The notes under the pieces are model-generated. The model had not been told where the DNA came from. It searched no databases and saw only the letters and a list, made by a program, of their open reading frames with translations. From contig CAWHTD010000012.1 in assembly GCA_963832135.1 (NCBI GenBank), positions 76,902-140,901 of the forward strand: a stretch of 64,000 nt of DNA. Direction: 5' to 3'. This DNA comes from Vicinamibacteria bacterium. GTDB taxonomy: Bacteria > Acidobacteriota > Vicinamibacteria > Vicinamibacterales > JAENWD01. The position numbers and the translations under genes are program-made. Of this stretch, positions 34,814 to 36,061 are shown in pieces. Each line of letters begins with the position of its first letter. Position 1 is the stretch's first letter.

Positions 34814-36061
34814 GTGAGAGCCGTCGTCGTCGTGCTCGGTGACCTCGGACGCAGCCCCCGCATGCTGTTCCACGCCCGCTCGCTGGCAGCAGAAGGCCTC
34901 GAGGTCGACCTGATTGGCACGGCGGCGTCCGACTTGCCGGCATTCATTGCCGGCGACCGGCGCATTGTCGTTCACACGATCGCAGACCACGCGCCCCACG
35001 CTGGTGTGTCTTCAGCGAGGCTCCGGTATCTCCTGAGGACGGTGTTGCGAGGGGCGCGACTCCTGATGGCGCTCGCGAGCCTGCTCTGTTGGCGCCTGAG
35101 CCGTCCCGACGTGATCCTCGTTCAGAACCCGCCCGGCGCGCCCACGATGGCGGTGGCCTGGCTGGCTGCGAGGTTGCGGTCGGCTCGGCTCGTTGTGGAC
35201 TGGCACAACCTGACCAGTGCGATGCTCGCCGTGCGGCACGGTCCAGGCCATCCGCTCGTGAAAGTGATTGCGCAGTACGAGGCGCTCTTCGGCAGGGCGG
35301 CGGATGTGAACCTGTTCGTGTCGTCGCACATGCAGGAGATGCTTGGCCGCCGATTCCGGGTGCGGGGGACAGTGTTCCGCGATCGACCGGCTGACACGTT
35401 TGCTCCGCTTGCGGCCGACGAGCGCGACCGCGCTCGCACCCGACTGTTTGCCATGTTCGCCCGGCCGACGATGCGTGAAATCGCGCTGCTCGTCAGTCCC
35501 ACGAGTTGGACGGCCGATGAACACCTCGATCTGTTCCTCGAGGCGTTGACGCAATATGACGCGAGAACGCGAGCCGACCACGGCCCGAACCGGTTGCCTT
35601 TTCTCGCCGTGCTGATTACCGGGCAGGGACCGCTGAAACGTGCCTTCGAGGAGCGAGCTCGGGACAACCCGCTCGAGTACGTACACATCCAGACCGGCTG
35701 GCTCGAGCCGGACGATTACGCCCGAGCGATCGCGGCCGCCGATCTGGGGATCTGCTGCCACGTGTCCGCGTCAGGAGTCGACCTCCCGATGAAAATCGTC
35801 GACATGTTCGGGGCGGGTGTTCCCGTGTGTGCCTACGACTACGGACCGTGTCTCCAGGAACTCGTAACCCCCGGCGTCAACGGTGTGCTCTTCACGACCG
35901 CTGAGAACTGCTGCGACCGTCTCGAGAACCTGTTACGTGGGCTGCCGGCCTCGAATCCGGTTCTCGAACGACTGCGGAAAGGCGCTGCCGAATCGGCGCC
36001 CAGGACGTGGGGCGAAGGCTGGATCGCCGAGGCTCGCTCGGCGCTAATCCCGAGCCGCTGA
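34814..36061 (+). CDS. ALG1-like beta-1,4-mannosyltransferase (GT33-like)
   Basis: The N-terminus [31 protein letters not shown] closely mirrors the ALG1 signature (VLGD-G-SPRM-YHA-SLA). The C-terminal part ([17 protein letters not shown]) is also ALG1-like. It starts with GTG. Confidence 0.8.
   Translation: [415 protein letters not shown]

Follow-up and report, generated by a model that had tools for sequence, protein, structure and literature searches.

Eukaryotic ALG1 is the chitobiosyldiphosphodolichol beta-1,4-mannosyltransferase (EC 2.4.1.142, CAZy GT33, KEGG K03842) that adds the first mannose of the N-glycan, and trimannosyl-chitobiose is the conserved core of all eukaryotic N-glycans. 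Here we describe an ALG1-like gene from a soil Vicinamibacteria bacterium of the phylum Acidobacteriota, together with the glycosylation gene cluster in which it resides, both located in a stretch of 64,000 nucleotides (hereafter the window; GenBank assembly GCA_963832135.1, contig CAWHTD010000012.1, positions 76,902 to 140,901). The encoded protein is assigned by sequence comparison to the ALG1/GT33 family, and by analogy with that family it is predicted to act as a GDP-Man:GlcNAc2-PP-undecaprenol beta-1,4-mannosyltransferase, a catalytic role to which we attach a probability of roughly 0.7. It is collinear with eukaryotic ALG1 over its full length (36% identity to the human enzyme, 38-44% to oomycete, chytrid and other homologues) and shares with it the motifs of both domains and the GT-B fold. 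In contrast to the eukaryotic enzyme, it has neither an N-terminal transmembrane anchor nor an interdomain insert of ~30 residues, its presumed carrier lipid is undecaprenol rather than dolichol, and its gene lies in an operon-like cluster. The new observation is the conserved linkage of the ALG1-like gene to ALG2-like and AglB-type oligosaccharyltransferase (OST) genes and to candidate chitobiose-forming and flippase genes; this linkage suggests that Acidobacteriota make N-glycans with a eukaryote-like core.

An earlier phylogenetic study (Lombard 2016, PMC4973528) found no prokaryotic relatives of Alg1 and regarded its origin as unknown, possibly a eukaryotic innovation. In October 2025, Xu et al. 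(bioRxiv 10.1101/2025.10.15.682550) reported 204 bacterial ALG1 homologues, retrieved by BLASTp with human ALG1 at E values from 6e-22 to 1e-104, and no reliable archaeal ones. Of five bacterial homologues put to the test, three (those of Gammaproteobacteria, Polyangia and Binatia) rescued yeast alg1-delta by complementation and also made Man1GlcNAc2-PP-phytanyl in vitro, a product accepted by human ALG2 (10.1101/2025.10.15.682550). The preprint shows that bacteria have active ALG1 and ALG2 homologues and is silent on their native role; its text does not contain the terms STT3, PglB, operon, gene cluster or Acidobacteria, and gives no genomic context (10.1101/2025.10.15.682550). The protein of the window belongs to the same family as the three active enzymes (GaALG1, PoALG1 and BiALG1; 10.1101/2025.10.15.682550), a likeness judged by their description and by the E value of 2e-87 against human ALG1, which lies within the published range, and it differs from them in coming from Acidobacteriota. 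As a single-gene annotation, it is one more member of a recognised bacterial ALG1 family, from a phylum not previously discussed, and its novelty is reduced because homologues of other phyla have already been shown to be active (10.1101/2025.10.15.682550). The original prediction, made from the DNA sequence alone, had suggested that a bacterial ALG1 homologue next to an OST had not been described functionally; the homologue as such has since been characterised, whereas the adjacency to an OST does not appear in that paper (10.1101/2025.10.15.682550). Within the limited collection searched, nothing relevant was found in the literature that links STT3, AglB or OST to Acidobacteria, Binatia or Methylomirabilota.

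Two further systems resemble the locus as a whole. The Campylobacter jejuni Pgl locus (PglC/A/J/H/I, PglK, PglB) is likewise a cluster of lipid-linked oligosaccharide enzymes with an ABC flippase and an STT3-family OST. Its initiator is PglC, however, whereas that of the window belongs to the WecA/ALG7 superfamily, and the window has ALG1- and ALG2-like glycosyltransferases and an AglB-type OST rather than PglB; the ABC exporter, similar to PglK, is the sole Pgl-like component, and the cluster does not group with PglB-type systems. The enzymes of the Sulfolobus chitobiose core (AglH/Agl24/AglB; Meyer et al. 2022, PMC8993221) have counterparts here in a polyprenyl-phosphate HexNAc-1-P transferase (GPT) family initiator, a MurG/Alg13-14-like second GlcNAc transferase and an AglB-type OST. 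Unlike the window, archaea have no reliable ALG1 homologues (10.1101/2025.10.15.682550); in addition, the GT28 protein of the window is closest to bacterial MurG, and the host is a bacterium.

Assignment to the ALG1/GT33 family

Pfam recognised only the generic GT-B halves in the ALG1-like protein (Glyco_trans_4_4 and Glyco_trans_1_4, 28-50 bits), and NCBIfam returned no match. Neither database has an ALG1-specific model, and direct comparisons with ALG1 were therefore run. In a BLASTP comparison the protein aligned with human ALG1 over residues 2-404 at 36% identity (E 2e-87). The human query agreed exactly with the Homo sapiens ALG1 isoform P0189 from approximately residue 132 as far as its C-terminal end (100% identity across 76% of the query), and later ALG1 tests used database sequences. 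When gibbon and ostrich ALG1 were searched with phmmer against every six-frame open frame of the window that is 80 aa or longer (394 frames), the ALG1-like frame was the sole match (E 2.6e-79 and 1.2e-77, respectively), and the two other GT-B genes of the window were not matched by either query.

An exhaustive phmmer search of 1.84 billion representative proteins with the ALG1-like protein as query returned 3067 proteins at E<=1e-3, of which 881 reach E<=1e-30, and by this measure the family is small and has a sharp boundary. Its top 150 matches include an oomycete "Beta-1,4-mannosyltransferase", a Synchytrium "chitobiosyldiphosphodolichol beta-mannosyltransferase" and Geranomyces proteins named mannosyltransferases, as well as unnamed homologues from Pneumocystis and a lycophyte, the eukaryotic matches being 38-44% identical to the query. 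A protein from a Binatia metagenome-assembled genome (MAG), 42% identical, is found in the same set, and the JGI pipeline labels dozens of the homologues "beta-1,4-mannosyltransferase".

Profile-profile comparison with hhalign aligned the bacterial family (20 members) with nine diverse eukaryotic ALG1 sequences over 411 columns at a probability of 100 (E 3e-135). The corresponding comparison with the family of the ALG2-like GT4 protein encoded in the same cluster gave E 1.2e-6 at 18% identity, and GT4 as the closest profile family was thus not borne out. BLASTP, phmmer, the exhaustive search and the profile comparison all group the protein with eukaryotic ALG1, in agreement with the GT33 assignment of the original prediction, and the best profile match fell to ALG1 and not to a family outside GT33.

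Reading frame, start codon and N-terminus

The ALG1-like ORF is intact and real. Its frame opens at 34790, the earliest start is the GTG at 34814, and its GC3 of 0.78 is typical for coding frames of the window; the large antisense ORFs of the window are what a G+C content of 66% commonly produces. The alignment with homologues, which are 410-425 aa long, starts at residue 1, many of them beginning MRAxVVVLGD, and the ORF is collinear with them from residue 1 to 415. The public gene model of the protein (P0001, 399 aa) begins at M17, 16 codons late, with loss of G9, D10, R16 and the GDxGRSPR motif. Since the homologues begin at the residue encoded by GTG 34814, and since G9, D10 and R16 are invariant or nearly so, the start of P0001 is considered mis-called and its N-terminus truncated. 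In the exhaustive search many representative proteins likewise align with their own residue 1 at query residue 17, which suggests a systematic start-calling error in the family. The N-terminal residues in which an ALG1 pattern had first been recognised are identical to the translation obtained here, and they open the full-length alignment with human ALG1, a similarity far beyond chance.

Signature motifs, fold and probable membrane attachment

The conservation extends throughout the protein. An alignment of 10 bacterial and 4 vertebrate ALG1 sequences (alignment A1) has 69 invariant columns, and in a broader alignment of 54 sequences (A2) 38 columns remain invariant, spread over both Rossmann domains. 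The latter include R16, D129-W130-H131-N132, E156, D190, W232, D235-E236, G270 and G272, and further W296, D310, H316, S318, D323, P325, K327, D330, G333 and E349, while G9, D10 and Q104-N105-P106-P107 are at least 90% conserved. The ALG1 signature motifs GDxGRSPRMxYHA, QNPP, DWHN, (S/T)SWTxDED, TGxGP, HxSSSGLDLPMKVxDMFG and ELV are all present. The list of human missense positions in ALG1-CDG, the congenital disorder of glycosylation, given in PMC10422073 was also compared: at eight of the 16 positions the window protein has the human residue, and at four others the change is conservative, which lends modest support, and S258, the commonest ALG1-CDG position, lies in the interdomain insert found only in eukaryotes.

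The AF2 model of the protein is a GT-B fold with two Rossmann-like domains (pLDDT 92.4, pTM 0.89), opening with a strand at residues 2-10 and a helix at 15-26. Its Foldseek matches are all generic GT-B enzymes (MshA, BshA, PimA, WaaG) at 12-19% identity, with TM-scores up to 0.72. Sequence searches of the PDB with the single protein and with the 54-sequence profile found no solved relative, and to our knowledge no ALG1 structure exists for comparison. The predicted fold consequently confirms membership of the GT-B superfamily and nothing more. By analogy with the general GT-B architecture, the C-terminal signature is putatively assigned to donor binding.

No N-terminal transmembrane anchor was detected: the protein begins at the GD motif, and its highest 19-residue Kyte-Doolittle mean of 1.39 is below transmembrane hydropathy. 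A cationic amphipathic helix, modelled at residues 69-94 and with the highest hydrophobic moment of the protein (0.70), is instead the probable interfacial membrane anchor, as in peripheral GT-B enzymes that use polyprenol-linked acceptors.

Organization of the glycosylation cluster

As the original prediction had described, the ALG1-like gene is divergent from the OST operon, a minus-strand run of MurG-like, GPT and STT3/AglB genes from which it is separated by a 99-bp spacer (Table 1). When 34500-36300 was scanned for promoters and terminators, this spacer showed no sigma-70-like promoter.

The first gene of the run encodes a MurG-like GT28 protein of 368 aa, a candidate second-GlcNAc transferase and functional analogue of ALG13/14. 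Its best PDB match is Pseudomonas aeruginosa MurG (E 9e-46), its score of 209.8 against the TIGR01133 murG model is below the cutoff of 250.25, and the gene is syntenic with the ALG1-like gene in related loci. It lies outside any dcw cluster, and its glycine loop reads GDTAGH against GGTGGH in P. aeruginosa MurG. The GPT that follows, a member of the WecA/ALG7 superfamily, has WecA as its best NCBIfam match (108 bits, below cutoff) and matches MraY and DPAGT1 in the PDB weakly; its translation probably begins further downstream than the first possible start in the ORF. The OST has A. fulgidus AglB-L as its best PDB match (E 8e-53), with no match to PglB or to a eukaryotic STT3 at 1e-3, and its motifs NDaWY (NDxWY), GFtDHH (GFxDHH) and WWDYG align with those of AglB-L. 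It likely starts at ATG 32625, judging from the sequence, where it would overlap the GPT stop codon as ATGA, an arrangement that suggests translational coupling.

Beyond the OST lie an FkbM-family methyltransferase gene and a third GT-B glycosyltransferase gene, which are adjacent also in the differently ordered locus L009; this conserved pairing suggests a methylated sugar in the glycan. The third GT-B protein resembles human ALG11 weakly (26% identity over 258 aa, E 1e-14), and as this similarity is confined to the C-terminal domain, an orthology to ALG11 was rejected. The ABC half-transporter, a candidate flippase for the lipid-linked oligosaccharide, matches C. jejuni PglK (5c73) over its full length (E 6e-70), and an ABC exporter adjoins ALG1-like genes also in L009, L029, L066, L091 and L093.

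At the far end of the cluster is a candidate ALG2-like GT4 alpha-mannosyltransferase. Over 407 aa it shares 39% identity with human ALG2 (E 9e-85), and it is 38% identical to a UniRef-named Chlamydomonas ALG2 (E 2e-66). Homologues, labelled "alpha-1,3/alpha-1,6-mannosyltransferase" by JGI, are found in MAGs of Vicinamibacteria, Methylomirabilota and Binatia. The public model of the protein, P0241, is 384 aa long and starts at ~26371, and the first start codon of the ORF is for this reason probably too far upstream. Taken by its predicted products, the cluster parallels the eukaryotic pathway in its cytosolic half (ALG7, ALG13/14, ALG1 and ALG2), with a flippase and an OST added. The ALG1-like gene had originally been called the strongest single argument for a GlcNAc2-Man core, a rank that it has to share, as the ALG2-like gene is equally strong evidence.

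Conservation of the linkage in related loci

The closest genomes are Vicinamibacteria/Acidobacteriota MAGs, and at least 12 related loci show the linkage between the ALG1-like gene and the cluster. L001-L004, L011-L014, L016, L022 and L092 keep the run of OST, GPT and GT28 genes in divergent orientation to the ALG1-like gene, even where identity between the ALG1-like proteins falls to 48%. The gene set is found in different orders in L009/L010 and in L093. In L009/L010 (1..19145; ENA ERZ19973635 and ERZ27254121) it is accompanied by genes for a GT2, a GT-C with PMT_2/Glyco_transf_22 (GT22)-like matches, an epimerase and a YfhO-family protein, which hint at a periplasmic extension dependent on polyprenol-phosphate sugars, reminiscent of the lumenal ALG enzymes. 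The ALG2-like gene directly adjoins the ALG1-like gene in L009/L010 and L028; in eukaryotes, ALG1, ALG2 and ALG11 form complexes.

Proposed reaction and alternatives

In the proposed pathway, the WecA-like GlcNAc-1-P transferase and then the MurG-like GT28 protein would make the chitobiosyl-lipid acceptor, GlcNAc2-PP-undecaprenol. The ALG1-like protein would be peripherally attached to the cytoplasmic face of the inner membrane via its amphipathic helix (residues ~67-95), binding GDP-mannose through the C-terminal domain (the HxSxSGxDxPMK...E349 region) and GlcNAc2-PP-undecaprenol through the N-terminal domain (GDxGRSPR, QNPP, DWHN). Mannose would be transferred with inversion to give Man-beta-1,4-GlcNAc2-PP-undecaprenol, which the ALG2-like GT4 protein, and perhaps also the third GT-B protein and the FkbM methyltransferase, would extend. 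Finally, the PglK-like ABC exporter would flip the glycan and the AglB-type OST would attach it to asparagine. In this scheme the family membership, the fold, the motif conservation and the recurrent linkage are observed, and the donor, acceptor, linkage type, carrier lipid, membrane topology and N-glycan destination are inferred. The bacterium thereby probably builds a eukaryote-like glycan core. That the window encodes a complete and linked ALG-type N-glycosylation pathway, with a trimannosyl-chitobiose-like core on bacterial envelope proteins, is a more tentative proposal, to which we give somewhat less than even odds.

Several observations weigh against the predicted reaction and its place in the pathway. 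No gene for GDP-mannose biosynthesis was found within the window, and the sequence matches of the GPT do not single out its sugar. As the GT28 protein most resembles bona fide MurG, the synthesis of the chitobiose acceptor is itself presumed. The N-terminal transmembrane anchor and the interdomain insert of eukaryotic ALG1 are missing throughout the bacterial proteins of alignment A1. In addition, the homologues from Deltaproteobacteria and Methylomirabilota were inactive (10.1101/2025.10.15.682550), and with two of the five bacterial homologues inactive, family membership is no guarantee of activity (10.1101/2025.10.15.682550). In a tblastn survey, finally, ~70 of 90 related loci (42-47% identity, metagenomic) showed a solitary ALG1-like gene without OST, GPT or GT28 in the available flank, and on the long contigs L005, L007 and L091 the gene stands alone or with only an ABC exporter or other sugar-modifying genes.

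The inactive homologues also raise the question of a true ALG1-family enzyme with shifted specificity, acting on another acceptor (a single HexNAc-PP-lipid, a modified HexNAc or a non-chitobiose disaccharide) or with another nucleotide sugar, such that the core would not be Man-beta-1,4-GlcNAc2. Such a shift would be compatible with GPT and GT28 sequences that do not fix the sugar, and with an identity between bacterial and eukaryotic ALG1 of only 36-44%. Conversely, GDxGRSPR, QNPP, DWHN, TSWTxDE, HxSxSGxDxPMK and E349 are invariant or nearly so between bacteria and eukaryotes, the canonical reaction has been shown for three bacterial homologues of distant phyla, and the co-clustered partner is ALG2-like, ALG2 being an enzyme that acts on Man1GlcNAc2. 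A shifted specificity is on balance considered unlikely, and the canonical beta-1,4-mannosyltransferase is preferred.

The solitary genes bear on the destination of the glycan. Most homologues are solitary or accompanied only by ABC exporter, GT2, methyltransferase or acyltransferase genes, with no STT3 within 10 kb (L005, L007, L091), as would be expected if the mannosylated lipid-linked glycan were bound elsewhere, for an exopolysaccharide, capsule, O-antigen-like polymer or glycolipid, and the proximity of the OST were incidental or secondary. As most of the distant homologues are solitary, the ALG1-like family is not tied to N-glycosylation clusters, and in a crude neighbour-joining tree, which carries no evidence on the direction of transfer, the solitary genes fall together in a single large group, with the cluster-linked ones on deep branches. 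Within the clade of the window, however, the OST/GPT/GT28/ALG1-like block is kept down to the 48% identity noted above, and these genes come together again in two further arrangements. Moreover, the OST has intact AglB catalytic motifs, and the cluster showed no genes for Wzx/Wzy/Wzz, a polymerase or a ligase. The linkage to the OST is accordingly recurrent and not universal for the family, and it is unlikely to be due to chance; a destination other than N-glycans appears slightly less probable again than a shift in specificity. The view that the protein is a generic GT4-type enzyme or the product of a decayed gene, its N-terminal likeness to ALG1 being coincidental, can draw on the generic Pfam domains, the empty NCBIfam result and nearest solved structures that are GT4 enzymes, but is effectively refuted by the full-length similarity to ALG1 (E 2e-87 pairwise; 3e-135 against 1e-6 for GT4 between profiles) and by the phmmer and exhaustive searches. 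The intact ORF, collinear with its homologues from 1 to 415, also speaks against it; Pfam has no ALG1-specific model, and the solved structures include no family member even by profile search.

Features of the window

The coordinates of the cluster, of the sequence elements of the ALG1-like gene and of other genes in the window are collected in Table 1. A gene for a membrane-anchored Ser/Thr protein kinase begins 30 nt past the stop codon of the ALG1-like gene, no terminator having been found in between, and it is not downstream of the ALG1-like gene in related loci. The glycosylation cluster is flanked by genes for a TPR protein and for an outer-membrane barrel similar to TonB-dependent receptors with a CarboxypepD_reg domain; a similar barrel is encoded near the ALG1-like gene in L092. 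Farther away, an ORF of 2836 aa with GH94 supersandwich, GH94 catalytic and glucoamylase-like domains resembles cyclic beta-1,2-glucan synthase (Cgs/NdvB type), and four very large ORFs (579, 1633, 1021 and 1026 aa) have almost no Pfam match save DUF6603 in the last.

Table 1. Positions of the ALG1-like gene, its sequence elements, the glycosylation cluster and other genes in the window
Feature	Position	Strand	Basis
ALG1-like (GT33) glycosyltransferase gene, 415 aa, GTG start	34814..36061	+	ORF, human ALG1 match, profile match, AF2 model
GGAG, likely Shine-Dalgarno element, 12 nt upstream of GTG	34798..34801	+	Read from sequence
N-terminal signature GDLGRSPR (residues 9-16), beta1-alpha1 loop; candidate acceptor-binding/catalytic loop	34838..34861	+	G9, D10, R16 invariant in A1
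Arg/Leu-rich amphipathic helix (residues ~67-95)	35012..35098	+	Helix in model; hydrophobic moment
N-domain signatures QNPP (104-107) and DWHN (129-132)	35123..35209	+	Invariant across bacterial and vertebrate ALG1 (A1)
C-domain signature H316-x-S-x-SG-x-D-x-PMK-x-x-D-x-FG through E349; putative GDP-Man region	35759..35860	+	54-sequence invariance
Divergent intergenic spacer, MurG-like/ALG1-like	34715..34813	.	ORF coordinates
MurG-like GT28	33608..34714	-	Pfam GT28 N- and C-terminal domains
GPT	32622..33791	-	PF00953, E 9e-41
AglB-type STT3 OST	30325..32661	-	Pfam STT3 and AglB_core-like
FkbM-family methyltransferase	29519..30343	+	PF05050; also in L009
Third GT-B glycosyltransferase	28310..29524	-	Pfam Glycos_transf_1
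ABC half-transporter; candidate flippase	26453..28306	+	ABC_membrane and ABC_tran
ALG2-like GT4; candidate alpha-mannosyltransferase	25217..26512	-	Human ALG2 and Chlamydomonas ALG2 matches
Ser/Thr protein kinase	36092..37738	+	
TPR protein	23908..25272	-	
TonB-dependent-receptor-like barrel	20352..23873	+	
GH94-containing ORF	3977..12487	+	
Four very large ORFs	51182..63954	-	

Implications

With the cluster, the native role of bacterial ALG1 and ALG2 homologues becomes a testable hypothesis: they would serve N-glycosylation in which the core is eukaryote-like. Confirmation would have a bearing on the chimeric origin, bacterial and archaeal, that has been proposed for the eukaryotic pathway, and it would offer glycoengineers a bacterial enzyme set that includes an OST presumably suited to a mannosyl-chitobiose glycan. 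Should the complete pathway hold true, bacterial ALG1 and ALG2 would gain a native function, and such clusters would be candidates for a relationship with the source from which the two eukaryotic enzymes were acquired.

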